Source of the DNA: a virus
Lineage: Duplodnaviria; Heunggongvirae; Uroviricota; Caudoviricetes
Reading direction: 5' to 3' (one strand)
IMG/VR virus record: IMGVR_UViG_2547132415_000008
Span: 1 to 22,786 of that record
DNA length: 22,786 nt
In this document: piece after piece, positions 436 through 19,097 of the stretch
How positions within the stretch are numbered: position 1 is the first letter of the stretch
Layout: the number at the start of each line of letters is the position of its first letter
Translations under genes and position numbers: made by a program
The notes under the pieces: model-generated
What the model saw: only the letters and a program-made list of their open reading frames with translations
Told to the model about the DNA's origin: nothing
The model's database searches: none

Positions 436-510
436 GGGTCAGTCGTATAAAGGTCATTACGGAAGGCTGTTAACCTTCTTATCGTGGTTCGAGTCCACGC
501 TGTCCCGCCA
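436..510 (+). tRNA. tRNA-Asn (anticodon GTT)-like, 75 nt
   Basis: Hand-folded cloverleaf: acceptor GGGTCAG/CTGTCCC with one T-T mismatch; D-loop with GG; perfect anticodon stem GAAGG/CCTTC; loop CTGTTAA (U33, anticodon GTT, A37); T-arm CGTGG-TTCGAGT-CCACG; discriminator G; CCA. The acceptor mismatch and 3-bp D-stem leave open that it is degenerate. Confidence 0.55.
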
Positions 511-515
511 AATAT

Positions 516-591
516 GCTGGTTTAGCTCCAATGGTAGAGCGGTCGCCTTGTAAGCGAATGGGTAGCGGTTCAAGTCCGTTAACCAGCACCA
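516..591 (+). tRNA. tRNA-Thr (anticodon TGT)-like, 76 nt
   Basis: Hand-folded cloverleaf: perfect acceptor GCTGGTT/AACCAGC; D-arm GCTC/GAGC with GG in loop; anticodon stem with one G-A mismatch; loop CTTGTAA (anticodon TGT); T-arm AGCGG-TTCAAGT-CCGTT; discriminator A; CCA. Confidence 0.6.
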
Positions 592-709
592 TAACTGAGC
601 CGTAGCCACTGGATGTCCTGAATTCATCAGTGATAGTTATGCTGCGGTCTTCTTTTTCTCCCTTCCCAATATAAGAACTACGCAATCCGTTACTGGCGGA
701 GGCGTTGCT

Positions 710-2946: not shown

Positions 2947-4315
2947 TCCGGCTTTACGTAGTTTCTGGACTACGCGGGCACGTAACAAAGTGCTTTATGG
3001 TGGCCGGTCATCGTCAAAATCATGGGATGCCGCTGGCATTGCCATATTTCTGTCGAATAAATACACTCTGCGTTTTTGTTGTGCCCGTCAGATCCAGAAC
3101 AAAATCGAAGAGTCGGTGTATACCCTGCTCAAAATTCAGATAGACAGGTTTGGCCTGCGGCACCGTTTCCGTATTCTGAACAACAAAATCATTAACCGGG
3201 TTACTGGCTCGGAATTTGTTTTTTATGGATTATGGCGCAACATCGAAGAAATTAAGTCACTGGAGGGGATCGATGTGTTGTGGCTGGAAGAAGCCCACGC
3301 ACTGACGGAATACCAGTGGAAAATTCTGGAGCCAACGATCCGTAAAGAGGGGTCGGAATGCTGGTTCATATTCAACCCCGGACTTGTTACTGATTTCGTC
3401 TGGCGCAACTTCGTTGTTGATCCGCCCGAAGGCACTCTCATCCGCAAAATTAACTATGACGAAAATCCGTTTCTGTCTGACACCATGCTTAAGGTTATCG
3501 ACGCGGCGCGACGCCGTGATCCGGATGGTTTTAAACATGTGTATGAGGGCGTTCCGGAGTCTGATGATGATGCGGCAATCATCAAACTGTCCTGGATAGA
3601 AGCCGCAGTGGATGCGCACAAAACGTTAAATTTCGAACCCAGTGGAAGAAAGCGTATTGGCTTTGACGTGGCTGACAGTGGTACAGATAAGTGCGCTAAC
3701 GTTTACCGTCACGGATCCGTTGTTTTCTGGGCCGACGAATGGAAGGCCAAAGAAGATGAATTACTGAAGAGCTGCCAGCGTACTTATCAGGCGGCGCTGG
3801 AGCGTGAAGCAGATATTGTTTACGACTCTATCGGTGTTGGTGCGTCTGCCGGTGCTAAATTCTCTGAAATTAACGCTGACCGGAAGAGCGAGAATGCATA
3901 CGCGAGACGAGTGAATTACCAGAGGTTTAACGCCGGTGCTGGTGTGCATGAGCCAGATGACGAATACAACGGCATCCCCAACAAAGACTTTTTCGCAAAT
4001 CTTAAGGCTCAGGCATGGTGGCTGGTGGCTGACCGTTTCAGAAATACGTTTAACGCCATTAACAACGGAGAACAGTATCCTGTGGATGAGCTGATCAGCA
4101 TAGATTCTAGTTGTCCGTTGCTTGAAAAGCTGAAACTGGAACTGACAACACCTCATCGCGATTTTGACCGTAACGGACGTGTGATGGTCGAAAGTAAAAA
4201 AGACCTCGCAAAACGCGAGATACCGTCACCAAACGTTGCTGACGCATTCATTATGGCCTTCGCGCCAATTGATACATCGCTGGATATCTGGGAACAGCTG
4301 GGGAGACAGGCCTGA
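2894..4315 (+). CDS. Terminase large subunit (ATPase plus nuclease)
   Basis: Walker A-like YGGRSSSKSWD near the N-terminus; acidic nuclease-type motifs downstream; size about 470 aa. Start uncertain (ATG 2894 or 2912; the track ORF begins at 2804), overlapping the terS 3' end. Stop overlaps the portal start (TGATG). Confidence 0.85.
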   Translation: MESVTSMTSTLTSKPTLNPALRSFWTTRARNKVLYGGRSSSKSWDAAGIAIFLSNKYTLRFCCARQIQNKIEESVYTLLKIQIDRFGLRHRFRILNNKIINRVTGSEFVFYGLWRNIEEIKSLEGIDVLWLEEAHALTEYQWKILEPTIRKEGSECWFIFNPGLVTDFVWRNFVVDPPEGTLIRKINYDENPFLSDTMLKVIDAARRRDPDGFKHVYEGVPESDDDAAIIKLSWIEAAVDAHKTLNFEPSGRKRIGFDVADSGTDKCANVYRHGSVVFWADEWKAKEDELLKSCQRTYQAALEREADIVYDSIGVGASAGAKFSEINADRKSENAYARRVNYQRFNAGAGVHEPDDEYNGIPNKDFFANLKAQAWWLVADRFRNTFNAINNGEQYPVDELISIDSSCPLLEKLKLELTTPHRDFDRNGRVMVESKKDLAKREIPSPNVADAFIMAFAPIDTSLDIWEQLGRQA

Positions 4316-5781
4316 TGGCACGAAACAAACAAGCCCTGCGGCGAACTGCGCAGGCCACAGCTGATGGTTATGAGAATTTTATTGCCCGCGTAGGGATGCA
4401 GACACCTAACCAGCACTCAGCATCCACCTACCGGGCTAATTTCACCAGTCGTAACCGCATGCTGGTGGAATGGTCCTATCGTTCGTCCTGGATCATCGGC
4501 GAAGCGGTCGATGCTATCCCGGATGATATGACCCGCAAAGGCATTCGCATCACTTCGGAAATTGATGCAAAAGATCGCGGCATTCTCGAATCACAACTGG
4601 ATGAGTTGCAAATCTGGGATGCGCTGAATGACGTGCTGAAATGGTCGCGCCTCTACGGCGGCGCGGTGGGTTTCATCATGATTGAGGGGCAGGCACCAAT
4701 GACCCCGCTGCGACCCGAAACCATCGGTAAGGGCAAGTTTAAGGGGATTCTCCCGCTCGACCGCTGGATGATTGACCCGGTACTGACCCGCCGCATTAAA
4801 GATATGGGGCCGGACCTGGGTAAACCTGAGTTTTACGATGTGGTGACCACAGCAACGGGAATTCCTGCCTGGCGCATTCATCACAGTCGCCTGATTCGCT
4901 TTGATGGCGTCACGCTGCCATTTCAGCAGAAGATGACCGAGAACGAATGGGGAATGTCGGTTGTAGAGCGTATCTGGGATCGTCTTACCGCGTTCGACAG
5001 CGCTACTGTCGGCGCGGCGCAGCTGGTCTACAAGGCGCATCTGCGCACCTACAGCGTGGAGAAGCTACGCGAGCTTATCGCACTTGGTGGTCCTGCGTAT
5101 GAAGCGTTGCTGAAGAATATCGACCTGATTCGACAGTTCCAGAGCAATGAAGGTATGACGCTCATGGACTCGCGGGATAAGTTTGAAACGCATCAGTACA
5201 GCTTCAGTGGTCTGGATGACATCCTTTCGCAGTTTGCAGAACAGATTAGTGGCGCTGTTGGTATCCCACTGGTGCGGTTGTTCGGACAGTCCCCGAAAGG
5301 ATTTTCTACCGGCGATGCAGACCTTGCCAACTATTACGACCGGGTAAGCTCGTTACAGGAGAGGCGTTTACGTCTTCCGGTGCGGCGGATACTGGACATC
5401 ATGCATCGTTCGGAGCTTGGCAAGCCGCTGCCGGACGATTTCACGTTTGAGTTTAACCCGCTCTGGCAAATGTCTGATGTCGATCGCTCAACGGTGGCGT
5501 TAAACACTACCAACGCAATCAGTACGGCGCTGGGTGATGGTCTGATGACACTGAAAGCCGCTATGACTGATTTGCGCGAAAATTCTGACGTAACCGGCAT
5601 CGGGGCATCCATTACCGACGAGGACATCGAGAATGCCGAAGATGAAGCGCCGCCCGGCATCGGCGAATCTGATGACGAACCGCAGGAACCGTCAGGCGGA
5701 AATCCGCTATCGAACCAGCCTACGCAGGATAGCGCGGGCGGTCGGAGACATCGTAAATGGTCGCTACGATGGTTCAAATGA
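4315..5781 (+). CDS. Portal protein
   Basis: 488 aa immediately after terL with coupled start and GGGGAGACAGG upstream. Acidic C-terminal tail (DEDIENAEDEAPPGIGESDDEPQEP) typical of portals. Position and size. Confidence 0.8.
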   Translation: MARNKQALRRTAQATADGYENFIARVGMQTPNQHSASTYRANFTSRNRMLVEWSYRSSWIIGEAVDAIPDDMTRKGIRITSEIDAKDRGILESQLDELQIWDALNDVLKWSRLYGGAVGFIMIEGQAPMTPLRPETIGKGKFKGILPLDRWMIDPVLTRRIKDMGPDLGKPEFYDVVTTATGIPAWRIHHSRLIRFDGVTLPFQQKMTENEWGMSVVERIWDRLTAFDSATVGAAQLVYKAHLRTYSVEKLRELIALGGPAYEALLKNIDLIRQFQSNEGMTLMDSRDKFETHQYSFSGLDDILSQFAEQISGAVGIPLVRLFGQSPKGFSTGDADLANYYDRVSSLQERRLRLPVRRILDIMHRSELGKPLPDDFTFEFNPLWQMSDVDRSTVALNTTNAISTALGDGLMTLKAAMTDLRENSDVTGIGASITDEDIENAEDEAPPGIGESDDEPQEPSGGNPLSNQPTQDSAGGRRHRKWSLRWFK

Positions 5782-6406
5782 CAGTATCACGGAAATTATT
5801 GAGGCGCTGGAACGCTACAGTGAAATCATCACCCCCTGGGCGACAAAGGTCGCGGAAAACTTTACTGCGGACCTAACCCGGCAGAACGAGAAAGTTTGGC
5901 GGCAACACAGCAAGAACATCAGTCGCGAGCTCCGCAATCTTGTGGAAAGCGCTCCTGTGGGCCAGGTGATGCAATCCATCATCGCCGAACAGGTCAAGTA
6001 CATCAAATCGCTCCCCCTCGAGGCGGCTGACAGGGTGTACGACATCCAGAATCGGGCGACAGAAGCTGTTGTGACCGGTGGGAGAGCAGAATATTTTGCT
6101 AAAGAAATAGCCGCATCGGGTGATATAGCAAAGTCCAGAGCTGACCTGATTGCCCGTACTGAACTTGGACGTGCAACCGGCGCGCTGGATCAGGCGCGTG
6201 CGCTGTCAATTGGTTCGAATGGTTATATCTGGCGTACAGCCGAAGATGGTGACGTCAGGCATTCTCATCGGGAAATGGAAGGTAAATTTGTCGAATGGGG
6301 CAAACCTCCAACGCTTGACGGCATGACCGGTCACGCTGGCGAGCTCCCGAATTGTCGCTGTTATAAAGAAATCGTTTTTCCCACCTCCCAATCTTATCCC
6401 GCCTGA
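5633..6406 (+). CDS. Head morphogenesis protein (SPP1 gp7 / Mu F-like)
   Basis: 257 aa following the portal; basic N-terminus, and the conserved-looking C-terminus SNGYIWRTAEDGDVRHSHREMEGK resembles minor head protein family signatures from memory. The start overlaps the portal by about 149 nt; a later start at 5642 or 5672 is possible. Confidence 0.65.
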   Translation: MPKMKRRPASANLMTNRRNRQAEIRYRTSLRRIARAVGDIVNGRYDGSNDSITEIIEALERYSEIITPWATKVAENFTADLTRQNEKVWRQHSKNISRELRNLVESAPVGQVMQSIIAEQVKYIKSLPLEAADRVYDIQNRATEAVVTGGRAEYFAKEIAASGDIAKSRADLIARTELGRATGALDQARALSIGSNGYIWRTAEDGDVRHSHREMEGKFVEWGKPPTLDGMTGHAGELPNCRCYKEIVFPTSQSYPA

Positions 6407-6420
6407 ATCGCAGGTAACAC

Positions 6421-7641
6421 ATGAAATATTTTTTCAATACCCGGCTGGGGGAAACCCGCTATCAGCTGGCTGACGGCTCGTTGCTGTGCAGAGACGTGCC
6501 GATAGGACGAACAGGTAAGCAGCTCTATGGTGCTGATGACCTGCCAAAACTGAAACCCGATAAGTTCGGTGAAATAGTCGTCACGCGTTCTCCTGAGCAG
6601 GTATTCCATCCGGCCACGCTTGCCTCATTCGAAGGGATGAGCATCACGATTCTGCATCCTGAAGATGAAAACGGGAATGTGCGGCTGGTAAATCCCGAGA
6701 ACTGGAAAGAGCTTGCTGTCGGGCACCTCCAGAATGTTCGGCGCGGGACGGGTGAGCTGTCTGATTTGATGCTGGCTGACCTTATCGTCAAAGACGAAAA
6801 CGCCATTCAGCTTATCGAAGATGGCCTGCGCGAAGTGTCGTGCGGCTATGACGCGGAGTACGAGCAGACCGAGCCAGGTAAAGCTGAGCAGGTCGATATT
6901 ACCGGAAACCATGTGGCTCTTGTCCCTAAAGGCAGAGCCGGAAATCGTTGTGCAATTGGAGACAGAGACACAATGGCAAATCAAAAGAAAAGCTGGTGGA
7001 ACCGCATGCGTGCGGCCATCAAGACAGGAGATGCCGACACCATGAACGAACTGGTGGAGTCGGCTCCCGCATCGGTTACAGGAGATGAGGGGGATTTGCC
7101 GCAGGGCGTTAATCTCAATATCAACCTGTCCCCGCAGCAACCACTACCGGACAAAGCACCAGAGATGGGGGGAGGTCCAACCGGCGACAGTGATGATGAC
7201 CTCAAAACATTACTGAAAGCCCTGCTGGCTAAGCTGGAAGGAAATGCCACGGGCGATAACGACAATAAGTCTGACGATAATCCGACCGGTGACGGCGAGG
7301 ACGATGAAGAGGAAACCACGATTACTGGTGACTCAGCCTGGCGTGCCGAAGTTATCGTTCCGGGTATCGATCTGAGCCGTAAGATGAAACCGACCGCGTT
7401 CAAACGCGAGGTTCTGGCTTCTGCTGACAAAACACTGGTTCGCCAGATAGTCGGTGATGCGGATATCCGCAAATTACCGAAACAATCGGTCGACATGGCG
7501 TTTAATGCCGTATCTGAGATTGCCAAAGGGCGAAACACCCGCGCCACCACCGGCGATGCACAGCGCCCAAACATGGGCATGACCAGCATCGCTTCCCTGA
7601 ACAAACAAAACGCTGAATTCTGGGCAAACCGTAAAGGGTAA
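6421..7641 (+). CDS. Putative scaffolding / prohead-processing protein with acidic low-complexity central tract
   Basis: 406 aa between morphogenesis and capsid genes; central D/E/G-rich tract; coiled-coil-like C-terminal part. Function by position only. Confidence 0.45.
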   Translation: MKYFFNTRLGETRYQLADGSLLCRDVPIGRTGKQLYGADDLPKLKPDKFGEIVVTRSPEQVFHPATLASFEGMSITILHPEDENGNVRLVNPENWKELAVGHLQNVRRGTGELSDLMLADLIVKDENAIQLIEDGLREVSCGYDAEYEQTEPGKAEQVDITGNHVALVPKGRAGNRCAIGDRDTMANQKKSWWNRMRAAIKTGDADTMNELVESAPASVTGDEGDLPQGVNLNINLSPQQPLPDKAPEMGGGPTGDSDDDLKTLLKALLAKLEGNATGDNDNKSDDNPTGDGEDDEEETTITGDSAWRAEVIVPGIDLSRKMKPTAFKREVLASADKTLVRQIVGDADIRKLPKQSVDMAFNAVSEIAKGRNTRATTGDAQRPNMGMTSIASLNKQNAEFWANRKG

Positions 7642-7644
7642 AAA

Positions 7645-8151
7645 ATGAATAATGTATTTCTGTACCGGATGCCTGTTGGCATTGCCGGGGCTGTCTCTCG
7701 CCCGCAGGACTTAACCGTCGAACCGGTGGTCCTTAAATCCGATAACGCCTTCGCTGCCTATGGGCTGGCTGGTAAATACGATGATGACGGTTTTTTCGTG
7801 CCGCTGGCAGATGGTGATACCGCAGACAAGGTGAAGGGGATCTACGTGCGCCCTTATCCGACCACGTCGCAGCCGGACATGGTTCGCCAGGTGGGGAGTG
7901 GCAAGAACTTCCCGGGCGACGCCATGAAGCGTGGCTACGTGACCGTTAATCTCGGTTCTGATTTTGATGCCAGCACCATCAAAAAAGGCGACCCGGTATA
8001 CGTTGTCGTCTCCACTGATGAATCCATCAAAGTGCCGCTGGGTGGATTCATGGCCACGTCAGTCAGTGGCAAAAACGTGGTGCTGACCAACGCTGAATTC
8101 ACAGGTGCCGGTGATGCTGACGGCAATGCAGAGATTTCCTGGAAGATTTAA
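7645..8151 (+). CDS. Capsid-associated protein (decoration or scaffold-like), function uncertain
   Basis: 168 aa, RBS AAGGG upstream, immediately precedes the major capsid gene. Confidence 0.4.
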   Translation: MNNVFLYRMPVGIAGAVSRPQDLTVEPVVLKSDNAFAAYGLAGKYDDDGFFVPLADGDTADKVKGIYVRPYPTTSQPDMVRQVGSGKNFPGDAMKRGYVTVNLGSDFDASTIKKGDPVYVVVSTDESIKVPLGGFMATSVSGKNVVLTNAEFTGAGDADGNAEISWKI

Positions 8152-8162
8152 GGAACAGACGA

Positions 8163-9104
8163 ATGATTACTTTTGATCAGGCAACCGTTGACAGCTCTGG
8201 TGCCTTTCTCATCGGGGAGCTGGAGCGACTCGACCAGACGCTGAACCTGCCACTGGTGGGGTACACCTGGACCCGCGATATTCAGTTGCGTGAAGATGTC
8301 TCTATCGCAGATGACATTTCCAGCTGGACGAATACCAGCTTCGCCGCTGCGGGTACTGGTGCAAATCCGAATGGCAAAAACTGGGTAGGCAAAGACTCAA
8401 CTGCTATTGCTGGCGTAAACGTGGATATCGGCAAATCCGGTAACCCGCTGAACCTGTGGGGGATGGAACTTGGCTGGACGGTCATAGAATTGCAGGCTGC
8501 TCAGCAGGTCGGCCGCCCGATTGATACGCAGAAGTATGACGGTATGCAACTGAAATGGCAGATGGATAACGATGAACAGGTATATGTTGGCGATTCCGCA
8601 TTAAACCTGAAAGGCCTTGTTACCCTGGACGGCGTGCCTGTCAACAACGCTGCCAAAACGTGGGCAACCTCAACACCGGACGAAATCCGCGCAAGTATTA
8701 ACCAGGTGCTGTCTGATGCGTGGGCCGCTTCCGGTTACTCTGTGGTTCCGCGTGATTTGCTGATCCCGCCTGAGCAGTTTGCTCTGTTGTCCAGCATCAT
8801 CGTTTCATCTGCGGGTAACCAGTCCCTGTTGACGTACCTTCAGACCAACACCATCAGCTATCACCAGAACGGTGTTCCGCTGAATATCCGCGCGGTTAAA
8901 TGGCTGAAAGGCCGTGGTGTGGGGAATAAGGATCGTATGGTTGCGTACACCAACGATAAAAAATATGTCCGCTACCCGCTGGTTCCGCTTCAGAGTGTGC
9001 CGGTGCAGTATCGCGGTCTGTATCAGATCGTCACTTACTACGGCAAGCTGGGTGCAGTCGAGCCAGTGTACAAAGAAACCATTTCGTACGTTGATGGCAT
9101 TTAA
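8163..9104 (+). CDS. Major capsid protein
   Basis: 313 aa, RBS AAGGA upstream, position after scaffold-like genes and before the head-tail joining genes; followed by a GC-rich hairpin. Confidence 0.65.
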   Translation: MITFDQATVDSSGAFLIGELERLDQTLNLPLVGYTWTRDIQLREDVSIADDISSWTNTSFAAAGTGANPNGKNWVGKDSTAIAGVNVDIGKSGNPLNLWGMELGWTVIELQAAQQVGRPIDTQKYDGMQLKWQMDNDEQVYVGDSALNLKGLVTLDGVPVNNAAKTWATSTPDEIRASINQVLSDAWAASGYSVVPRDLLIPPEQFALLSSIIVSSAGNQSLLTYLQTNTISYHQNGVPLNIRAVKWLKGRGVGNKDRMVAYTNDKKYVRYPLVPLQSVPVQYRGLYQIVTYYGKLGAVEPVYKETISYVDGI

Positions 9105-9144
9105 CAGCCATATGGCCCCTGGCGGGGCCATTAAGGATGACCCG

Positions 9145-9366
9145 ATGGCAAAAAATAATGCAGTAATACACGTACATACCCCGTTTGTGCTCACGCTTCC
9201 CGACGGTTCACGGCGCGAGTTTGTTAAAGGCCGTCATGCTGTGGAGGAAGACGTTGCCACGCACTGGTTCACTCGTGCGCACGCGGAAGTATCCGTTGGC
9301 AAAGCCACAGACGCGCGTAACGAGGTAAAAAATGCCAAAGAATCAAAGTCTGCCAGCGGTAAGTGA
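9145..9366 (+). CDS. Small head-associated protein (hypothetical)
   Basis: Internal ATG of track ORF 8914..9366 with RBS AAGGA 6 nt upstream; 73 aa. The upstream part of the track ORF overlaps the capsid gene and was discarded. Confidence 0.4.
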
Positions 9367-9739
9367 TTTTCGCCGCGACTTCCCGCAGTTTGCTGACCCT
9401 GCCAAATATCCCGAAGCGCAAATCCAGTTTCGTCTGAATCTGGCCGATGAACTGCTGAGCGAAAACGTCACCAGCAAAAAGTTGTTTCCGTACTTTGCCG
9501 GATTGTTCGTTGCACACTACATGACGCTCTGGGCGGCAGACAGCCGGGCGATGCTGGCTGGTGGTCCGGGCGGTTCAACCAATGGTGTTCAGTCCTCAAA
9601 GTCCGTGGATAAGGTAAGCGTCAGTTATGACACCAGCGCGACGCTGAATCCTGATGCAGGTTTCTGGAATAACACCCGATATGGCGCTGAATTTTATCAG
9701 TTGATCACGATGTTCGGTGCAGGTGGTCGCCAGCTATGA
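9332..9739 (+). CDS. Head-tail connector / head completion protein (hypothetical)
   Basis: 135 aa, RBS GAGG upstream; position between capsid and tail genes. Confidence 0.45.
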
Positions 9740-10290
9740 GTTTCAAAAGCGGTGTAACAACGAGGGTGGATAACGCTAAGGCCATTCTGGATGCGCTCAG
9801 GTCGTTAACCCAAAAAGATGTGCTGGTCGGCATCCCTTCGGAAGACAGCGGGCGGGATGATGTTCCGTTTGGTAATGCGGGCATCGGTTACCTCAACGAA
9901 TACGGCTCACCAGAGCAGAATATCCCGCCACGACCTCACCTGGTCCCCGGCGTTAAATCGGCAGAAGAGCAGACGGTGCCGCAGCTCAAAGCCGCGGCGC
10001 AGGCTGCACTTGATGGTAATGCTGCGGGAGCAGAAAGTGCACTCAACCGTGCCGGAACGCTGGCCGTTAATGGCGTCAGGCGTTACATGACCATTACCGG
10101 CTTTACGCCGCTTGCTGACAGTACTGTTGAAGCCCGGGCTCGTAGGGGGCGCAAGGGGGCAACAATGGAACTTGCCCGGCGTGCTGCTGGCGAATCTCCG
10201 GGAACCGATCTGGCGAAACCATTAATTGATACCGGGCAATATCGCAGAGCGATTACCCATGTTGTGAGGGATAAAGATGCCGACTCTTGA
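9736..10290 (+). CDS. Head-tail joining protein (hypothetical)
   Basis: 184 aa; start overlaps previous stop; RBS AGGTGG upstream. Confidence 0.45.
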
Positions 10291-10666
10291 TGTAACAGAT
10301 GTGCTTTTTGACCCCGATTTTTGCGACTTCAATTTGTGGGTAACACGCCGTGTGCAAACGGTGGATGAGGACGGGATCGGCAGCGACAGCGAAGTTAAAA
10401 AGCAGTTTGCCGGAGTCGTTACTGTTGATCGCTCTCTGGAAAACCGTCGTATGCAGGCCGGGCAGGTAATCAGTGGTGCAATTCTGATTGTGACGACTGA
10501 GCGACTGACGCAGGGACAGACTGGCCGTGATGCCGATATCGTGACGTATCAGGGCCGTGATTATCGTGTGACCTTCGTCGACCCGTATACAGCTTATGGT
10601 GCCGGATTCGTTCAGGCGCATTGTGAGTTGCTGCCGTTTGATGGGGGAATTCCGGTTGAGCAATAA
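10277..10666 (+). CDS. Head-tail joining / tail completion protein (hypothetical)
   Basis: 129 aa; RBS GTGAGGG upstream; overlaps previous gene by 14 nt. Confidence 0.45.
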   Translation: MPTLDVTDVLFDPDFCDFNLWVTRRVQTVDEDGIGSDSEVKKQFAGVVTVDRSLENRRMQAGQVISGAILIVTTERLTQGQTGRDADIVTYQGRDYRVTFVDPYTAYGAGFVQAHCELLPFDGGIPVEQ

Positions 10667-11204
10667 CACCAGCACAGAGCGCGGATGGCTGATACCAACC
10701 AGTGGCGATCCGGATTATGACGAAGCGCTCGACAGGCTGTTAAGCCAGTGGATGCGTAACGTTTCCGGTCTGTCTGCCGGGATGGTTCGTCCGCGCTGGC
10801 AGAAAGAGCAACCGCCACTGCTACCGGCTGAAACGAACTGGTGTGCGTTTGGGGTTATCGGATGGTCAGGTGATGACAGCCCGGCATTCACCAGACAGAC
10901 CGATGATGGCTCTCAGCTCTGGCGGCATGAAACGATTGAGTGTATGGCTTCGTTTTATGGACCGGCGGGGATGGTGTATGCGTCCCGGTTTCGTGACGGT
11001 ATATCTGTGCCGCAGAACAATGCAGCACTGAATGCGCTGGGGCTGTCTCTTGGCGATTACACAGGTCTGACTCCCTTCCCTGAACTTATTAATCAGCAAT
11101 GGGTCCGCCGCTACGATATGACGGTGCGCCTGCGCCGGAAGGTTGTGCGCGAGTACGGTATTAAATCGCTGGTGGAAGCACCAGTCATCTTTTTCGGAGA
11201 TTAA
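10641..11204 (+). CDS. Tail completion / sheath-terminator-like protein (hypothetical)
   Basis: The track ORF begins at 10596 but overlaps the previous gene by 70 nt; the internal ATG at 10641 (or TTG 10656 after GGGGGAA) is the more likely start. Confidence 0.45.
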   Translation: MGEFRLSNNTSTERGWLIPTSGDPDYDEALDRLLSQWMRNVSGLSAGMVRPRWQKEQPPLLPAETNWCAFGVIGWSGDDSPAFTRQTDDGSQLWRHETIECMASFYGPAGMVYASRFRDGISVPQNNAALNALGLSLGDYTGLTPFPELINQQWVRRYDMTVRLRRKVVREYGIKSLVEAPVIFFGD

Positions 11205-11207
11205 GCT

Positions 11208-12353
11208 ATGGCACAGGGCTTGCCTGTATCAAACGTTGTTAATGTTGATGTGATCATGTCGCCGCGTGCAGCATCAGGGCGAAATTTTGGTGCATTACTC
11301 ATTCTCGGCCCGTCCACAATCATTCCGGTAAGTGAGCGCATTCGTCGTTATTCTGCCGCGGAAGATATTGGAAAAGATTTTGGCGTGGAATCACCAGAAT
11401 ATAAGGCTGCGCAGGTGTTTTTCTCACAATCACCGAAACCTCAGGAGGTTTTTGTTGGTCGTTGGGTGAAAACGAAGGGAGACAGCGAACAGGCCACGCC
11501 TGAGACGCTGGAGCAGGCTGTGAATGCCATGCTCGATTATACTTCATGGTATGGGCTGGGGATTGCAGACGATGCAGATATTCCGGATGCAGACTGGCTG
11601 AAAGTGGCTGCGGCGATTGAATCCTCTTCTGTAAGCCGTATTCTGGCGATTACGACAAGCGATGAGAAATGCCTGCAGACTGCATCCAGCGATGATTTGG
11701 CATCAAAACTGAAAACCGCCGGATATTCACGCAGTTTTATTCAATATTCATCGGGTAATAAATACGCTGCGTTATCTGCATTTGGCCTGGCATTCACGGT
11801 TAATTTCAATGGCAGTAATACCGCGATTACGCTCAAGTTTAAGCAGGAGCCGGGTGTCGGGTATGAAACACTGACAGTCAGCCAGGCATCGGCACTTGAT
11901 GCAAAAAACTGCAATGTATTCGTGTACTACCAGAATGATACGGCTATCCTCCAGCAGGGAGTGATGGCTAACGGCGATTTCTTTGATGAACGCCACGGCC
12001 TGGACTGGTTACAGAATTATGTGCAGACCAACCTCTATAACCTGCTTTATACCAGCACCACGAAAGTTCCCCAGACTGAAGCCGGTATTACCCGACTGTT
12101 ATCAAATGTAGAAAAATCACTGGATCAGGCCGTTCAGAATGGACTGATTGCTCCGGGCGTATGGAACGGTGGCGACCTTGGTCAGTTGTCATCAGGTGAC
12201 ACGCTGCCCAAAGGTTATTACGTATACGCCCAGCCGCTGGATGAACAGGCACAATCAGAACGTGAAGCCCGTAAGGCTCCGGTGATTCAGGCTGCAATAA
12301 AACTTGCAGGCGCGGTTCATTACGCTGACGTACAGATTAACGTTGTTCGCTAA
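11208..12353 (+). CDS. Tail sheath protein (contractile tail)
   Basis: 381 aa with RBS GGAGA upstream, followed directly by a 146-aa tube-like gene, a chaperone with frameshift, and a tape measure gene: canonical myovirus order. Confidence 0.7.
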
Positions 12354-12363
12354 GGGGAAGTGA

Positions 12364-12804
12364 ATGTCTACCTATTCTTTTATGGATGTCACTGCGACGC
12401 TGACCGGGCCGACCGGTTCGATTGACCTCGGGTACGGTTCGGCAAGTTCTGAAGAGGGGATTGTGGTTGCGATGGGCGGTCCTAAAAACACCATGACCAT
12501 CGGTGCTGATGGCGAAGTGATGCACAGCCTCCATGCAGATAAAAGCGGGACGATTACCGTTAACCTTCTGAAGACATCACCGACAAATAAAAAATTGTCG
12601 CTGGCGTATAACGCACAGAGCCAGTCTTCTGCCACATGGGGGAATAACGTTATCGTGATCCGCAACAAGGTCAGCGGCGACATCATCACGGCACGCAGTG
12701 TTGCGTTCCAGAAACAACCGGATAACGCCAACGCTAAAACCGGTAATACGATGCCGTGGGTGTTTGACTGCGGCAAGATTGACCAGGTTCTCGGGGAGTT
12801 TTAA
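12364..12804 (+). CDS. Tail tube protein
   Basis: 146 aa, RBS GGGGAAG upstream, between sheath and chaperone genes. Confidence 0.65.
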   Translation: MSTYSFMDVTATLTGPTGSIDLGYGSASSEEGIVVAMGGPKNTMTIGADGEVMHSLHADKSGTITVNLLKTSPTNKKLSLAYNAQSQSSATWGNNVIVIRNKVSGDIITARSVAFQKQPDNANAKTGNTMPWVFDCGKIDQVLGEF

Positions 12805-12807
12805 TAC

Positions 12808-13260
12808 ATGGAATTCGAAATTAAAGGCGTGAAATATCGCGCGGCAAAACTCAGCGTTTTTGACCAGCTGAAAGTGACCCGTAAACTTCTGCCGGTACTG
12901 GCGGGAATGATGTCAGATTTCGGGAGCATTCGCTCCCGTTTGCCTGCTGACGGCAAAATCGACACCGTGAAATTCGAGCAGTTAAAACCGGTGTTTGAAA
13001 CCATGCTCCCGCGTATCGCTGAGGAACTGTCTTCCCTGACCGAAGATGACACCGATGCGATTATTCATCCCTGTCTTGCGGTGGTATCGCGGCGTCATAT
13101 GGACGGATGGGTGCCGGTATTTACCCATGGCGAACTGATGTTTGATGATATTGACTTGCTGGTCATGCTTCATCTGGTGGCGCGGGTGGTCGCCGATTCG
13201 CTGGGAAATTTTTTGCCTACACCCCTTACCAGCACGACGCAGAGCCTGCAACAGGGCTGA
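12808..13260 (+). CDS. Tail assembly chaperone (short form)
   Basis: 150 aa immediately upstream of the tape measure gene; slippery heptamer T TTT TTG near its 3' end; RBS GGGGAG upstream. Confidence 0.65.
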   Translation: MEFEIKGVKYRAAKLSVFDQLKVTRKLLPVLAGMMSDFGSIRSRLPADGKIDTVKFEQLKPVFETMLPRIAEELSSLTEDDTDAIIHPCLAVVSRRHMDGWVPVFTHGELMFDDIDLLVMLHLVARVVADSLGNFLPTPLTSTTQSLQQG

Positions 13261-13457
13261 CGTTTAACAGCCTGCCGGACGGGCTGTCCTACCTTCTCAA
13301 TCCGGTTGACGCCGGGTTAATTCCTTATACAGCACTTAAAGATGGCTCTGTCGATTTGTACGACATTGCTCTCTTAAATGACCATCTGGCGGTAAAAGCG
13401 GATAACCAGCGGCGCATTGAGAAATGGAGAGAGGATAATGAACGCCGAGACTATTAA
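13215..13457 (+). CDS. -1 frameshift extension of the tail assembly chaperone (long form, G-T-like product), 81 codons with no ATG
   Basis: The -1 frame is open from 13215 to TAA at 13455..13457 (AYTPYQHDAEPATGLTFNSLPDGLSYLLNPVDAGLIPYTALKDGSVDLYDIALLNDHLAVKADNQRRIEKWREDNERRDY) and is entered at T TTT TTG (13209..13215). Confidence 0.6.
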   Translation, partial: AYTPYQHDAEPATGLTFNSLPDGLSYLLNPVDAGLIPYTALKDGSVDLYDIALLNDHLAVKADNQRRIEKWREDNERRDY

Positions 13458-15426
13458 AGATTTCCTCGTCTCGCTTGGCTTCAGTGTGGATGATGCAGGA
13501 GCGAAAAAATTCGGTTCTGTCCTCGCCGGTACAACTGCAAATGTCATCAAAATGGGGCTGGCCGTCGAAGGAGCTGCGCTGTCCGTGGTGGCCTTCACGG
13601 CTAAGATCGCCTCCGGTCTGGATAATCTTTACTGGGCGTCACAGCGCACCGGCGCGACAGTCCAGGGAATTCAGTCTATTGGCTATGCGGTTTCGCAGGT
13701 TGGCGGCAGCGTGGACGCTGCGCGATCTTCTCTGGAAAACCTCTCCCGGTTTATTCGTAATAATCCCGGGGCGGAGGGATTTCTGAATCGCCTGGGCGTA
13801 CAGACCCGTGATGCCAGCGGTAACATGCGTGACATGGCCGCTATCTTTACGGGCGTTGGACAGAAACTCAGCAGCATGCCGTATTACCGGGCTAACCAGT
13901 ATGCGCAGATGCTGGGCATTGACGAAAATACCCTTATGGCGATGCGCCGGGGTGTGGGTGGCTTCTCCGGGCAGTACAGCGCAATGGCGAAAGCTATCGG
14001 CTTCAATGCTGACGAGGCGGCCAGAAGCTCCAACAAATTTATGACCTCCCTGCGTGAGTTTAGCGCGATGGCAGGCATGGCCCGTGACAAAATCGGCTCT
14101 AATCTTGCGGGTGGGCTTGCAGGTTCGCTGGACACCCTGCGCCGCCATATCCTGGACAACTTCCCTCGTATCGAGCAGACCCTGACGAAAGCCATAAAAG
14201 GCATTCTGGCGCTCGGGGATATTATCGGGCGGCTGTTCTTCAGACTGATTGAGGGGACATCAGGCCTTATCACCTGGTGGCAATCGCTGGATAAGCAAAC
14301 GCGGGAGTTGATCTCGCTGTTTGGCGCACTGACGATTGCGCTGCGCATTCTGAACAGTACGTTCTGGATGTCGCCGGTTGGCCTCATTACCGCGCTGGCG
14401 GCGGGGATTGCCCTCCTGTGGGAGGACTATCAGACCTGGAAGGAAGGCGGCGACAGCCTGATTGACTGGGGCAAGTGGAAACCGGAGGTCGATGCCGCGC
14501 TGAAGATGGTTCGTGACCTTAAAACGACCGTTAACGACCTGGCGAAAGCGCTGGCGAAACTACTCAATATTGACCCCAAATCATGGTCCCTGAAGTGGGA
14601 TTTCAGCAACTTCATCGACCAGATGGGCGAATTCAGCAAAATGCTGAACATGATCGCCGACCTGCTCAACGCTATCAAAGATGGCCGCTGGGCTGATGCC
14701 GTCAGCATCGGCAAACAGATACTTAATCAGGGCAGCGAAAATCCGTCAGCGATGCCGATGGTTACAGACAGCGCTAACAGTACTGCCGACTGGATTAAAG
14801 AGCACTGGGGATTCGATCCCCGCAGTGTGGGCCGGACGGTACGCGGCTGGTTTGGTGATGATGAGCCGGAACAACATGCACAGGCTACGAAACGAGGAGA
14901 ACGGAATAACAATCCGGGAAACCTTAATTTTGCTGGTCAGGCGGGGGCTTCTCTTGAACGCCCGGGCGGGCGATTTGCCAGATTCGAAACTGCCTTTGAT
15001 GGATTACGGGCTCTTGCTCGTCAGTTAATGTTGTACGCCGGACGGGGAATAAACAGCGTGGAGAAAATTGTCTCTACCTGGGCGCCTGCGTCTGATAATA
15101 ACAACACAACTGCGTATATCAGGGCTGTATCGCAACGACTGGGAGTGGATCCCCGGGCTGCCCTGAATATGAGCGATCCGCAAACCATGTCAGCATTGAT
15201 GAGCAGCATTATCCAGCATGAGAATGGAAGAAATATCTATTCCCGAGAGCTGATTAATAAGGCTGCCGTGGCGGGAATTAGTGGCAAAGTGACAGAGGTT
15301 AACCAGCAAAATACCTACCACATTTACGGTGGCGGAGATCCGCACGCTGTCGGTAATGAGGTTGCACGTCGGCAACAGTCTGCAAATGCTCAGGTCATGC
15401 GAAGTAATCAGGTGAGGGTGGGTTAG
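13438..15426 (+). CDS. Tail tape measure protein
   Basis: ATG 13438 preceded by GGAGAGAGG (the track ORF starts at 13417). 663 aa; a long Ala/Leu/Gly-rich helical protein downstream of the frameshifted chaperone; hydrophobic central segment; distinct C-terminal domain. Confidence 0.75.
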   Translation: MNAETIKDFLVSLGFSVDDAGAKKFGSVLAGTTANVIKMGLAVEGAALSVVAFTAKIASGLDNLYWASQRTGATVQGIQSIGYAVSQVGGSVDAARSSLENLSRFIRNNPGAEGFLNRLGVQTRDASGNMRDMAAIFTGVGQKLSSMPYYRANQYAQMLGIDENTLMAMRRGVGGFSGQYSAMAKAIGFNADEAARSSNKFMTSLREFSAMAGMARDKIGSNLAGGLAGSLDTLRRHILDNFPRIEQTLTKAIKGILALGDIIGRLFFRLIEGTSGLITWWQSLDKQTRELISLFGALTIALRILNSTFWMSPVGLITALAAGIALLWEDYQTWKEGGDSLIDWGKWKPEVDAALKMVRDLKTTVNDLAKALAKLLNIDPKSWSLKWDFSNFIDQMGEFSKMLNMIADLLNAIKDGRWADAVSIGKQILNQGSENPSAMPMVTDSANSTADWIKEHWGFDPRSVGRTVRGWFGDDEPEQHAQATKRGERNNNPGNLNFAGQAGASLERPGGRFARFETAFDGLRALARQLMLYAGRGINSVEKIVSTWAPASDNNNTTAYIRAVSQRLGVDPRAALNMSDPQTMSALMSSIIQHENGRNIYSRELINKAAVAGISGKVTEVNQQNTYHIYGGGDPHAVGNEVARRQQSANAQVMRSNQVRVG

Positions 15427-16013
15427 TGGATATTCTCTCTACACTTTTTCATCAGCAGAGCAGAAAAATAGGAATGATTGTTCCCAGTGTTGTTATTTCA
15501 GAGAAGCATACAGATATGCTTGAAATAACCGAGCATCCGGTAGAGGTCGGGGCCGCTGTCGCTGATCATGCCTATAAAAAACCGTCAGAAGTGGTGATGG
15601 AGGTTGGTTTCGCCGGTGGCGGCGCATTGCTGGATTTTGCCAGTAACCTGACGGCTACCAGCCTGCTCGGCCTGAGTCCTCAGCAGACGTATCAGGAGCT
15701 ACTGGATCTGCAGGAAAGCCGTATCCCCTTCGATGTGGTAACCGGTAAACGGCTGTACAGCAACATGTTGATCCGGGCGCTGGAAGTGACGACGGACAAG
15801 ACAACCGAAAACGTCCTGTCCGCCGTCCTCACCCTGAGGGAGGTCATTATCTCCCGGACACAGCAGATTACCGTCGCGGATAAAACCAACATGAAGGAAG
15901 GGGCCAGCACGTCGGCGGTACAGAACAGCGGCAACAAAACCACAAAACCTCCAGATACTTCACTGCTGAAAAGCATCACGGGTAACGTGGCGTCATTACT
16001 GGGGGGCGGCTAA
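15426..16013 (+). CDS. Tail/baseplate-associated protein (hypothetical), probable GTG start
   Basis: GTG at 15426 overlaps the tape measure stop (TAGTG) with GAGGGTGGG upstream; 195 aa. An alternative ATG at 15474 has no spacer after its RBS. Confidence 0.45.
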   Translation: MDILSTLFHQQSRKIGMIVPSVVISEKHTDMLEITEHPVEVGAAVADHAYKKPSEVVMEVGFAGGGALLDFASNLTATSLLGLSPQQTYQELLDLQESRIPFDVVTGKRLYSNMLIRALEVTTDKTTENVLSAVLTLREVIISRTQQITVADKTNMKEGASTSAVQNSGNKTTKPPDTSLLKSITGNVASLLGGG

Positions 16014-16315
16014 TGACAATTCAGGAAATTCCGCTGACAGCGGACAACCAGCAGTTCAGCATCGTCCTGGGTGGTGTCACCTGGCGGATTAGCATCATAT
16101 GGCGCGATCTGTACTGGATTATGGACCTGCAGAACGACAGAGGGGAGCCGGTAATCTCCGGTATTCCTCTCGTCACTGGTGCTGACCTGCTGGCGCAGTA
16201 CGCCTGTATGGGGCTTGGTTTTAAGCTGGTGGTGGTCTGTGATGACAACACACAGGATTACCCCACAAAAACTGACCTGGGCGGTCGCAGCCATTTACTG
16301 GTATCAACGGAGTAA
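16013..16315 (+). CDS. Small tail/baseplate protein (hypothetical)
   Basis: 100 aa; start overlaps previous stop (TAATG). Confidence 0.45.
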   Translation: MTIQEIPLTADNQQFSIVLGGVTWRISIIWRDLYWIMDLQNDRGEPVISGIPLVTGADLLAQYACMGLGFKLVVVCDDNTQDYPTKTDLGGRSHLLVSTE

Positions 16316-16317
16316 GC

Positions 16318-17379
16318 ATGTCACAGAACTGGATGAGACATTTCGAGCTGCAGCTTGTGGACGGGAACGGTCAGGGAATTGAGCTAAGTGATTTTAAAGT
16401 CACCTTTACGATCGACTGGTTCAACATCAGCAGCGCGTCCCGGGTAGGGACTATCAAAATTTATAACCTCTCGGCAGATACTGTGAACCGAATCACCGGG
16501 CAGGAGTTTTCGAAAGTGCGTCTGATTGCCGGTTACGACGGTATCGCGCCGGAGGTGTCGGCAAGCGACGTCGGGACCGTGCGGGAAGTTGACGCGGCGG
16601 ACGTGGGTCAGAGTGATGGCCGCAACTACGGACTGATTTTCAGCGGTGAAATTCGCTACTCGGTCACAGGAAAAGACAGTCCGGTTGATTCCTACGTCCT
16701 GATTCAGGCAGCAGATACTGATCTGGCTTTTGCCACCAGTATAACCTCACAGACGCTGGCTGCCGGTTACACGGTCGCTGATGTAAACCGTGCGCTGATG
16801 AAAGACTTCGAAGCCAAAGGCGCGACCGAAGGCCTGACGCCTGAAATGCCTGCTACTGTATTCCCCCGGGGGCGGGTACTCTTTGGCATGACGCGGCATC
16901 TAATGGATAACGTAGCCGGGCAATGTGGCGCAACATGGCAATTCGTGGACGGTCAGCGCCAGATGGTGGCGAATAACGAATATGTTCATGAAGCGATTGT
17001 GCTCAACAGCGCTACCGGGCTTATTGGCATGCCGCAGCAGACTATCGGTAACGGCGTAAACGTCCGCGCGCTTATTAATCCGAACATCCGGGTTAACGGA
17101 CTTATTCAGCTGGATCAGGCTTCCGTGTATCGTACCGCCTTGTCGAACAACGATATTGCGATGGCTGGTGGTCAGATCACCGACCAGAACACGGATGGAA
17201 ATATCACGCTAAGCGGCACCACATCGCAGCCTGCCAGCATCGCAACGGATGGCGTTTATATTGTGCGCGGGATTATGTACACTGGCGACACAAGGGGCCA
17301 GGCGTGGTACATGGATATGATGTGCGAAGCGCGTGGCGCGGCGGATCTGTATACGCGATCGGCTTTGCAAAGGGGATGA
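16318..17379 (+). CDS. Baseplate hub / tail protein (hypothetical)
   Basis: 353 aa; RBS GGAG upstream; position after tape measure and small tail proteins. Confidence 0.5.
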   Translation: MSQNWMRHFELQLVDGNGQGIELSDFKVTFTIDWFNISSASRVGTIKIYNLSADTVNRITGQEFSKVRLIAGYDGIAPEVSASDVGTVREVDAADVGQSDGRNYGLIFSGEIRYSVTGKDSPVDSYVLIQAADTDLAFATSITSQTLAAGYTVADVNRALMKDFEAKGATEGLTPEMPATVFPRGRVLFGMTRHLMDNVAGQCGATWQFVDGQRQMVANNEYVHEAIVLNSATGLIGMPQQTIGNGVNVRALINPNIRVNGLIQLDQASVYRTALSNNDIAMAGGQITDQNTDGNITLSGTTSQPASIATDGVYIVRGIMYTGDTRGQAWYMDMMCEARGAADLYTRSALQRG

Positions 17380-17382
17380 GCA

Positions 17383-17724
17383 ATGAGGGGTATTATTTTT
17401 CTGTTAGCTGTCTTTTCTGCGTGCAGCGCGTGGGCGGATGGCTTCACGGTTAAATGCGGTGGCTACACTATGGTTGCAAACCAGGGCGAGTTATCGACTA
17501 TCAACGGTGAAAGAGTTACCTCTCAAAAAATCACCGAACTGGGTACCAATGGTTTGAAAGTAGACATGGGGCTTATGCCTGCCAAAGACGGTAACAACTA
17601 CGGCTTTGAATACATTCGTCGCCCTGGTACCGAAACGCGATTCCTGAATATCCAGCTTCTGCAGAACAGCATGGATGCGCCGAAAATCATCGGATCTTTC
17701 CCTTGTAAAAAAGTGGCTGGGTGA
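17383..17724 (+). CDS. Small secreted protein or lipoprotein with N-terminal signal peptide (moron candidate)
   Basis: 113 aa; MRGIIFLLAVFSACSAWADG has a hydrophobic core, a lipobox-like FSAC and an AWA-DG signal peptidase I site. Two further Cys in the mature part. Not expected for a virion tail component. Confidence 0.6.
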   Translation: MRGIIFLLAVFSACSAWADGFTVKCGGYTMVANQGELSTINGERVTSQKITELGTNGLKVDMGLMPAKDGNNYGFEYIRRPGTETRFLNIQLLQNSMDAPKIIGSFPCKKVAG

Positions 17725-17750
17725 AGGTAACCTGAAATTCGTAACGCCTG

Positions 17751-17789
17751 AAAAACAACAAAATGTGCTCTAAAAACTGTTGTTTTTTG
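17751..17789 (+). terminator. AT-rich hairpin with T-run, weak candidate terminator upstream of the cassette
   Basis: AAAAACAACA (17751..17760) pairs with TGTTGTTTTT (17778..17787); loop is 17 nt; T-run follows. Weak. Confidence 0.3.
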
Positions 17790-17809
17790 AGACGAGCGAT
17801 TACACTGCA

Positions 17810-17850
17810 CTGACTTTTTGATGGTGGATTGCCATCGATATGCTACTTCA
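17810..17850 (+). promoter_or_regulatory. Possible cassette promoter (TTGATG -35-like at 17818..17823, TATGCT -10-like at 17839..17844)
   Basis: Hexamers read by eye; spacing is 15 bp, which is suboptimal. Low confidence. Confidence 0.2.
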
Positions 17851-17873
17851 TTAAAGCCAGGAATAACTAAAAC

Positions 17874-18605
17874 ATGAGTTTAGCGCAGCCAAAATCAGGA
17901 GAACTGTTAGATCTTCTGACTCCTTCATTAACTAAGGGTGAAAACCTTCTGAGTGAGTTTGAAATCCATCGAATCATTCGTGAAGCGAAGAAACTACCTG
18001 AACGTTATCAGGGGCTATCAATTGAAGGCTTAGCTAAGCTTGTTCTTGGTGAAATAGATGAAGGATGTTCACTCTGTGAGCGGGGGTTGAGAATAGCGCC
18101 TAACGATCCAGTTTCTTTTTGTAACTATACGATTGCGCTGCGTAACTTAGGTTTGCATGCTCGCCAGTATGTGATGATTCAGAAAGCATCTGATTCACTT
18201 AATCCAACGATATTGGCTGAGGTTGCTACAATTTCTGCATACTGGGTTGATATCGATTTGCTTGAAAAGGTGATGCCGATGCTAACTGCAATGGAAGTAC
18301 CGCGCCCTGAAGATATGGGCAAATGGTATGACACGCTCAATTATCTGCATACCCAAAAAGATCATGCTCAGGAGCTAAAAACTATTGGGCGGCTCATGAT
18401 GAACGTTGCAGAAAAGTACCGCGCTCGTCTTGCTGGCGCTCATGCTTTTTATGTAATGTCAGAACTTGATACGCTGTTCGTTGAAGTCAAAACAGACGAT
18501 CCAGTGCTTCTTTCGCAGATGAATAATGCCTTGGCTGATGAGATTATTATTGCGGGGCTTGCGGATTCAGAATGCGTCGGATGCTTTGAAGCCGGGGAAC
18601 TCTAA
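17874..18605 (+). CDS. Cassette gene A: uncharacterised 243-aa protein, helical, TPR-like segment and two CxxC motifs
   Basis: ATG 17874 with AGGAATAA upstream. Lower GC than flanking tail genes by eye. CSLC near residue 64 and CVGC near residue 232; segment GLRIAPNDPVSFCNYTIALRNLGLHARQYVMIQKA looks TPR-like. Stop overlaps gene B start (TAATG). Confidence 0.7.
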   Translation: MSLAQPKSGELLDLLTPSLTKGENLLSEFEIHRIIREAKKLPERYQGLSIEGLAKLVLGEIDEGCSLCERGLRIAPNDPVSFCNYTIALRNLGLHARQYVMIQKASDSLNPTILAEVATISAYWVDIDLLEKVMPMLTAMEVPRPEDMGKWYDTLNYLHTQKDHAQELKTIGRLMMNVAEKYRARLAGAHAFYVMSELDTLFVEVKTDDPVLLSQMNNALADEIIIAGLADSECVGCFEAGEL

Positions 18606-19033: not shown

Positions 19034-19054
19034 GCTGAAATTTCTCAAAATTCA

Positions 19055-19078
19055 AACCCGCCACTTGGCGGGTTTTTT
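19055..19078 (+). terminator. Rho-independent terminator closing the cassette
   Basis: AACCCGCC (19055..19062), loop ACTT, GGCGGGTT (19067..19074): 8-bp GC-rich stem followed by TTTT. Confidence 0.8.
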
Positions 19079-19097
19079 GCTTTCTGGAGCCTACTAA

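Follow-up and report, generated by a model that had tools for sequence, protein, structure and literature searches.

Among lambdoid phages, a tRNA-Asn gene and a tRNA-Thr gene are annotated in phages 21, Sf6, SfI and BTP1, among others; other lambdoid phages have different tRNA arrays between Q and the lysis or stx genes, such as the ileZ-argN-argO set of the Stx phages. Both genes of SfI were found with tRNAscan-SE (PMC3636060), according to the epsilon34 paper a Salmonella prophage has this same pair, and the phage L paper records tRNAs at this place in some P22-like phages, stating that it is not established whether these are cleaved out of the late mRNA or made from a promoter of their own (PMC8022706). 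The transcriptome study of BTP1 left "the two tRNA genes" out when listing highly expressed prophage genes and has the lytic operon starting directly 3' of them (PMC7067206); this description and the RNA-seq signal at these homologous genes are compatible with expression and excision and proof of neither. On the expression mode or role of this pair, the literature that we found consists of genome descriptions, with no functional experiment among them. Here we analyze a window of 22,786 nucleotides, the whole stretch of DNA under study (positions 1 to 22,786 of IMG/VR record IMGVR_UViG_2547132415_000008, a virus of the Caudoviricetes), which carries such a pair at positions 436-591. An earlier reading made from the letters alone (hereafter the sequence-only reading) had placed two adjacent tRNA-like genes, Asn-GTT and Thr-TGT, at these positions between the late promoter and the lysis genes, and had stated that phage-borne tRNAs are known at this position in lambdoid prophages. 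All of this is borne out: the promoter pR' occupies 351-379, the holin gene starts at 710, and the two genes between them, at the start of the late operon of a lambdoid prophage, are the phage 21/SfI/Sf6 tRNA-Asn/tRNA-Thr pair itself, not a variant of it. As such the result matters little, since it confirms a correct annotation that GenBank has carried from the phage 21 and Sf6 records onward and that several genome papers have discussed.

Two tRNA genes and their conserved structure

ARAGORN calls only two tRNAs in the whole window, both on the plus strand: a tRNA-Asn with anticodon GUU (GTT in the DNA), 75 nucleotides long, at 436-510, and a tRNA-Thr with anticodon UGU (TGT), 76 nucleotides long, at 516-591. 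They are separated by the 5-nucleotide spacer AATAT (511-515, plus strand), which reads AACAT in phage 21. An Infernal search with the Rfam tRNA model RF00005 (gathering threshold 29 bits) gave 55.3 bits (E 1.2e-9, matched span 436-507) for tRNA-Asn and 61.2 bits (E 2.9e-11, matched span 516-588) for tRNA-Thr, each gene covering model positions 1-71 of 71, and no other Rfam family appeared in 300-760 even in a permissive scan at E<=1. Thus both predictors call both genes as tRNAs, with neither a pseudogene call nor a missing call, and the CCA ends that the sequence-only reading had noticed are indeed encoded (508-510 in tRNA-Asn, 589-591 in tRNA-Thr). That both are genuine tRNA genes we regard as virtually certain.

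The tRNA-Asn has a 4-nucleotide variable loop, the discriminator G73 and two non-pairs, U4·U69 in the acceptor stem and U13·U22 in the D stem. The tRNA-Thr begins with G1:C72 and C2:G71, has the discriminator A73 and contains one non-pair, G27·A43, at the top of the anticodon stem. One mismatch had been claimed for each gene; the T-T in the Asn acceptor stem and the G-A in the Thr anticodon stem are U4·U69 and G27·A43, respectively, but the second Asn non-pair, U13·U22, had been missed, as had a C at position 14 of tRNA-Thr. Of the nucleotides that engage in tertiary interactions (U8, A14, G18 G19, U33, purine 37, T54-Psi55-C56 and A58), tRNA-Asn has all, and tRNA-Thr has all except that at position 14. 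This position, a near-universal A among tRNAs, is C here and in published homologues, T in a few variants and A in others.

Single-sequence folding energies are weak (z = -1.7 for Asn and -1.5 for Thr), and the predicted structures are non-cloverleaf or marginal. Such weak z values are usual for tRNAs and do not discriminate; because single-sequence folding is uninformative here, the tRNA identity rests on the covariance-model score and on covariation. Reverse-strand open reading frames (ORFs) over the tRNAs (457-627 and 479-685) were treated as spurious, and a few phage records list a "hypothetical protein" there.

The identity elements of the Escherichia coli asparaginyl-tRNA synthetase (AsnRS) are the anticodon G34 U35 U36 and the discriminator G73, and those of the threonyl-tRNA synthetase (ThrRS) are G1:C72, C2:G71 and the anticodon bases G35 U36. 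The phage tRNA-Asn presents GUU in the loop CUGUUAA and G73 before the CCA end, and the phage tRNA-Thr presents G1:C72, C2:G71 and the anticodon UGU.

To follow these features across relatives we searched with the 3' end of the Thr gene as pattern, which yielded 120 viral contigs, and ran ARAGORN on each. The Asn-Thr pair is present in 110 of the 120, and a few contigs carry longer arrays (Asn-Phe-Thr-Arg in Klebsiella phages, and Asn-Tyr-Thr-Ser). The Asn sequence of the window is the dominant variant, found in 79 contigs, and its Thr sequence is one of two dominant variants, which occur in 20 and 75 contigs (95 together) and differ at position 26. Gap-free alignments comprised 18 distinct variants per tRNA. 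When the cloverleaf with stems of 7, 4, 5 and 5 base pairs is laid over these alignments, 89.4% of the paired cells are paired in Asn and 94.4% in Thr, against 20-55% in slid registers. Both sides of the stem have changed at three Asn pairs and six Thr pairs, and for both tRNAs the covariation score lies above all 500 of 500 shuffles and every slid register. The Asn double changes come from a single Klebsiella-phage lineage and therefore represent few independent events.

The non-pairs are themselves conserved. U4·U69 is retained in 14 of the 18 Asn variants (two have U·C and one U·G) and is present even in L099, a copy that differs completely in the D, anticodon and T arms; U13·U22 is retained in every Asn variant of this architecture, and G27·A43 in 16 of 16 lambdoid-type Thr variants. 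The anticodon is invariant across all variants of both tRNAs (18/18 for Asn), a single Asn copy (L111) differing at loop positions 32-33. G73 is found in 17 of 18 Asn variants, the remaining one (L036) having T, while G1:C72 occurs in 17 of 18 and C2:G71 in 18 of 18 Thr variants. No variation occurs in the T loops, G18 G19 or U8, and all aligned variants retain the CCA end. Conservation of the non-pairs, combined with compensatory changes at other stem positions, argues for tRNA-like selection and not for decay; as judged from these alignments, the genes are evidently under selection as tRNAs.

Relatives, distribution and origin of the pair

The cassette is very common. It was matched in 855 of 5,426 complete E. 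coli genomes (~16%), nearly always on the chromosome, and among the matches listed PGAP labels tRNA-Asn and tRNA-Thr in the RefSeq E. coli genomes. As many Salmonella and Shigella phages also carry it, the pair poses a small but widespread question about temperate-phage tRNAs. A scan of species-representative genomes returned six hits, in Escherichia sp., E. albertii, Phytobacter, Shimwellia and two contigs from metagenome-assembled genomes. These two short contigs (L134 and L138) carry this enterobacterial phage tRNA-Asn and are binned as Segatella copri and Collinsella sp., placements that are most likely binning errors.

Identity over positions 330-720 of the window is 99.7% with Shigella phage SfI and 97.7% with coliphage 21, and over 387-653 it is ~97% with Sf6, BTP1 and many P22-like phages of Salmonella; the same tRNA-Asn and tRNA-Thr are marked in most of the annotated records of these relatives. 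In phage 21 (OL657228, genes CPT_21_64 and CPT_21_65) and SfI (JX509734) the pair occupies the same site as here, after the terminator tR' and before an S21-type holin gene. The tRNA-Asn of the window is identical to the phage 21, Sf6 and SfI copies, and its tRNA-Thr is identical to that of SfI but one base off those of phage 21 and Sf6 (G26 here, A26 there). The resemblance to these two phages ends further downstream, where the terminase, head and contractile-tail genes of the window, unlike those of SfI or phage 21, match E. coli phages of the vB_EcoM-611R5 kind (97.7%). In P22-like phages (Sf6, BTP1, SPN9CC and others) the tRNAs sit at the same late-leader site within a block, ~97% identical, that runs from the late start through tR' and the tRNAs to a hairpin; in Sf6 the holin downstream is of the lambda-S type, and the right flank begins to diverge at ~653.

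More distant arrangements occur at the same site. Phage L has tRNA-Asn there, but its Q protein and Q-binding element differ from those of phage 21 (PMC8022706). In the Klebsiella phage ST16-OXA48phi5.2 the Asn-Phe-Thr-Arg array likewise lies between the Q and holin genes; its Asn and Thr members are homologous, show compensatory changes in the stems and share the conserved non-pairs. In contrast, this copy differs in its Q and lacks a homologue of the phage 21 tR', and the sets and numbers of tRNAs differ. The second tRNA gene of ST64T and phage L retains acceptor and T arms of the Thr type, but its anticodon arm is rewritten (ST64T, L006 ~1287-1358, against window 516-591). ARAGORN makes no call on it, and for phage L it was reported as Leu(UAA) by tRNAscan-SE (PMC8022706); it is a derivative with a switched anticodon or else a damaged copy.

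Compared with the host genes of E. coli K-12, the phage tRNAs share the anticodons of asnT and thrU, their identical 7-nucleotide anticodon loops (CUGUUAA and CUUGUAA) and their discriminators (G73 and A73), and with thrU the first two acceptor pairs agree as well. The phage pair is set apart, in contrast, by its stem mismatches and C14, and overall the phage Asn gene agrees with asnT at 48 of 76 positions (63%) and the phage Thr gene with thrU at 54 of 76 (71%). Recent capture of host genes was rejected on this account, identity being just 63-71%. The phage tRNA-Asn is closer to the host glyT, a tRNA-Gly(UCC) gene (L004:474-548), agreeing at 54 of 75 positions, and the two have in common the D arm UCGUAUAA.GG..AUUAC and the 4-nucleotide variable loop. 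These resemblances hint that the phage tRNA-Asn may be a Gly-type scaffold fitted with an Asn anticodon and discriminator.

The same combination of anticodons, Asn(GUU) and Thr(UGU), is found in adjacent or near-adjacent genes in phage P1 and in an N4-like phage, which are unrelated phage types with a different transcription context. Their Thr genes are related to that of the window (62 of 76 positions for P1; 66 of 76, with an identical acceptor stem, for the N4-like phage) but have the normal A14 and a paired 27:43, whereas their Asn genes belong to a different lineage (45-48 of 76). The P1 pair is downstream of the C1-controlled P1ban/P2ban promoters and not in a Q-dependent late leader.

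Late transcription and possible roles of the tRNAs

The region to the left of the tRNAs holds the elements of a Q21-type late antitermination unit, all on the plus strand. The C-terminal 110 codons of a Q21-type late antiterminator span 12-344 (PHROG 943 "anti-termination protein Q-like", E 5.8e-56, and the phage 21 antiterminator coding sequence); the gene begins left of the window, and its TAG stop at 342-344 is the same stop codon as in phage 21. Since positions 330-440 are 100% identical to the phage 21 sequence from pR' through the Q-binding element and pause element to tR', the features annotated in phage 21 are directly transferable. These are the promoter pR' (351-379), with a -35 hexamer TTGACA at 351-356 and a -10 hexamer AACACT at 374-379; the Q-binding element ATTGAGCA + AATGAGCA at 359-374, inside pR'; the late transcription start at 386; the sigma-dependent pause element TAAGCTG at 387-393; and the intrinsic terminator tR' at 388-435, a hairpin followed by TTTTTTTATTT. 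The phage 21 record cites Yin et al. 2019 (PMID 31455742) for pR' and the Q-binding element and PMID 1704887 for the terminator, its annotation of the late unit as a whole drawing on PMID 1704887, 31455742 and 31663818. The RNA of tR' folds with -20.2 kcal/mol (z = -6.1; 0 of 200 shuffles equally stable), and tRNA-Asn starts at the first base after the annotated terminator. All elements of the unit are present, and it would be expected to function as the work on phage 21 indicates.

A consensus scan of positions 1-1000 for promoters and terminators detected neither pR', with a simple sigma-70 search, nor tR', which a simple terminator scan misses because its stem is interrupted. The same scan gave no convincing promoter-like site upstream of the tRNAs, the one marginal match being at 12-41 within the Q gene. 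As the tRNAs sit behind tR', their transcription should depend on Q antitermination, and we infer that they are made only once Q antitermination turns on late transcription and are then excised from the late transcript.

On the other side of the pair, a hairpin at 597-651 (plus strand; fold -19.8 kcal/mol, z = -2.6) lies just 3' of tRNA-Thr and marks the end of the conserved block. It is kept in most of the ~110 viral contigs, up to ~653, and one diverged copy shows a compensatory change from G-C to A-U. After ~653 the right flank splits into two versions, one like the S21-holin flank of the window and the other like that of Sf6. Reading the hairpin and the T-run behind it (597-665) as a second intrinsic terminator was rejected in general, because the T-run is missing in most homologous copies. 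One may guess that the hairpin serves as a 3' processing signal or as a 5' stabilizer of the late mRNA.

The course of events that we favor, with moderate confidence in the whole chain, is Q-dependent co-transcription, excision, charging and a modest, general gain in the decoding of Asn and Thr codons while virions are made. RNA polymerase starting from pR' (~386) would normally halt at tR' (388-435), as has been shown for phage 21 with the identical sequence. The Q21-type protein would load at the Q-binding and pause elements and allow read-through of tR', so that both tRNAs and then the lysis, head and tail genes would be transcribed. Host RNase P and 3'-end nucleases would presumably excise the tRNAs, to which CCA should not have to be added since it is encoded. 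Charging by the host AsnRS and ThrRS is to be expected because their known identity elements are present. The outcome would be extra decoding of AAC/AAU and ACA/ACG while virion proteins are synthesized in bulk, a benefit that would be modest, accessory and general, and neither essential nor tailored to these particular late genes.

Supply of codons used by late or accessory genes had been suggested by the sequence-only reading, which proposed comparing their usage of AAC/AAU and ACA. Codon usage was counted in 28 late genes of the window (6,870 codons) and set against that of 37 K-12 genes (14,775 codons) from one 50-kb K-12 segment, our host baseline, and that of the late genes of lambda. 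ACA is used 12.2 times per 1000 codons in the window late genes, 6.5 in K-12 and 8.1 in the lambda late genes (1.9-fold over K-12, p = 3.5e-5). The corresponding frequencies are 18.0, 11.9 and 27.4 for ACG; 47.5, 35.5 and 35.8 for all Asn codons (1.3-fold over K-12); and 66.1, 52.0 and 69.8 for all Thr codons. Lambda has no tRNA, and its late genes are host-like for ACA and Asn. For SfI an ACA usage of 17.3 against 7.1 was reported (PMC3636060), and in the capsid gene of phage L 24 of the 25 Asn codons are AAC (PMC8022706). The SfI paper also tested "CAA" for the anticodon GUU and found no bias (PMC3636060); GUU reads AAC/AAU, and CAA is a Gln codon.

Several observations weigh against such a role. 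Besides the narrowness of a baseline of one segment, rarer codons are enriched more strongly than ACA (AGG 6.2-fold, AGA 5.0-fold, CGG 2.7-fold and ATA 2.0-fold), and the phage brings no tRNA for any of these four. E. coli already has tRNA-Asn genes, asnT for example, and the K-12 copies number four. The tRNA-Thr lacks A14, and a mismatched stem position is conserved in each tRNA, features that may or may not affect charging. Finally, vB_EcoM-611R5 has the same structural genes (97.7% over 4262-22430) and zero tRNA genes; therefore the cassette is not needed for these structural genes and is an accessory module whose movement is independent of the genes that would benefit from it. Taken together, the enrichment of ACA and Asn codons upholds the suggestion in direction, as it fits codon and amino-acid demand, but the fit is loose, the stronger enrichment of codons that have no phage tRNA and the existence of vB_EcoM-611R5 do not agree with it, and a codon-supply role is weakly supported.

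Three other explanations can be weighed against this chain. One is that the phage tRNAs replace host tRNA-Asn and tRNA-Thr inactivated by the tRNA-targeting nucleases of abortive-infection systems, colicins or contact-dependent toxins, their divergent bodies together with U4·U69, G27·A43 and C14 making them poor nuclease substrates. The distance of the bodies from the host genes (48/76 to asnT, 54/75 to glyT, 54/76 to thrU) would suit this, as would the recurrence of Asn(GUU) with Thr(UGU) in the unrelated P1 and N4-like phages, whose Thr genes are related to the present one (62-66/76), and the persistence of U4·U69 in L099 despite its different D, anticodon and T arms. Colicin E5 cleaves tRNA-Asn. 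It is also among the tRNA-depleting enzymes that phage tRNAs have been proposed to counter, but the proposed signature of nuclease evasion is mutation of the anticodon loop (PMC10264068), and this signature is absent since the loops CUGUUAA and CUUGUAA are identical to those of the host. Expression only late, behind tR', is moreover an odd timing for a function needed early. A nuclease directed specifically at tRNA-Thr(UGU) is not known to us from these hosts, and our literature searches turned up no supporting experiment; we consider this explanation improbable. About equally improbable is that tR', the tRNAs and the hairpin are mainly punctuation, decoding being secondary: excision by RNase P and RNase E would remove the terminator leader and create a defined 5' end of the late mRNA, which the hairpin at 597-651 would cap, setting its stability or translation. 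The conserved mobile block from ~387 to ~653, hairpin included, which is ~97% identical in phages with different holin genes, is in keeping with this idea, as are the compensatory hairpin change in one diverged copy, the different sets at the same site in other lambdoid and Klebsiella phages (Asn-Phe-Thr-Arg, Asn-Tyr-Thr-Ser) and the start of the BTP1 lytic operon directly 3' of the tRNAs in RNA-seq (PMC7067206). Yet such a module would have no need of invariant anticodons, correct discriminators and synthetase identity pairs, all of which are retained; lambda, P22 (according to PMC8022706) and vB_EcoM-611R5 have a late operon of the same type without a tRNA, and support for the hairpin itself is thin (one compensatory pair, z = -2.6).

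The third explanation, that the genes are decaying pseudogenes carried passively between Q and the lysis genes and that the mismatches are signs of decay, could appeal to the mismatched stem in each tRNA, the missing A14 of tRNA-Thr, folding no better than that of shuffles (z ~ -1.6), sporadic singletons damaged by extra mismatches or 1-nucleotide deletions, the rewritten second gene of ST64T and phage L that ARAGORN no longer calls, and the phages that manage the same late genes without the cassette. Set against these are covariance-model scores about twice the Rfam threshold; dominant sequences shared identically by 79 Asn and 95 Thr copies (the latter as two variants one base apart) among the 120 contigs; double changes that preserve the stems; mismatches that are conserved and not scattered; and an anticodon, T-loop, G18 G19, U8 and CCA end that are invariant or nearly so. 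Conservation and covariation have already largely refuted decay, which we hold to be very improbable. There is a small chance that the odd features (U4·U69, G27·A43 and C14) and the fixed tR'-Asn-Thr-hairpin block are adaptive in an undescribed way, whether by conferring resistance to tRNA-cleaving toxins of hosts or competitors or as a processing module for the 5' end and stability of the late mRNA. If so, the tRNAs would do more than supplement codon supply, and should their role turn out to be other than codon supply, the conserved mismatches are the place to look.

Lysis genes and mosaic structure downstream

The late operon continues on the plus strand with the lysis genes. Its first protein gene, 119 nucleotides beyond the end of tRNA-Thr, is an S21-type holin/antiholin gene (710-925; PHROG holin families, E 2.8e-35, and the phage 21 S21 coding sequence), which encodes a pinholin in phage 21. 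It is followed by an endolysin gene (925-1422; PHROG 7, E 1e-68, and the phage 21 annotation), the product being a SAR endolysin in phage 21. Spanin genes, with matches to PHROG 214, 456 and 3001 ("Rz-like spanin"), lie at 1419-1974: an Rz-like ORF (1419-1811) and an overlapping Rz1-like ORF that ends at 1974. The Rz-like ORF terminates at 1811, earlier than its SfI counterpart, and as the Rz1-like ORF extends past this point the arrangement is overlapped and not embedded. Beyond the spanins come genes for the terminase subunits, portal, head and contractile tail, all on the plus strand.

A mosaic junction lies in the spanin region at ~1600-1616. The part to its left matches phage 21 and SfI, and related E. 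coli prophages match from 1599 or 1616 onward at 98.7%; the whole mosaic was found at high identity in no complete E. coli genome or phage record, although its source is enterobacterial.

Within the baseplate cluster, between hub-side genes and a gpV-like spike gene (19098-19850), two ORFs of 243 and 142 amino acids occupy 17874-19033. They have no Pfam match, their PHROG matches are solely to families of unknown function, and the only match in a defence library, to HEPN, was insignificant (E 0.009). The GC content of this segment is ~0.445, compared with ~0.53 in its surroundings, and vB_EcoM-611R5 has a different, single ORF at the equivalent place; the segment looks like an accessory-gene insert.

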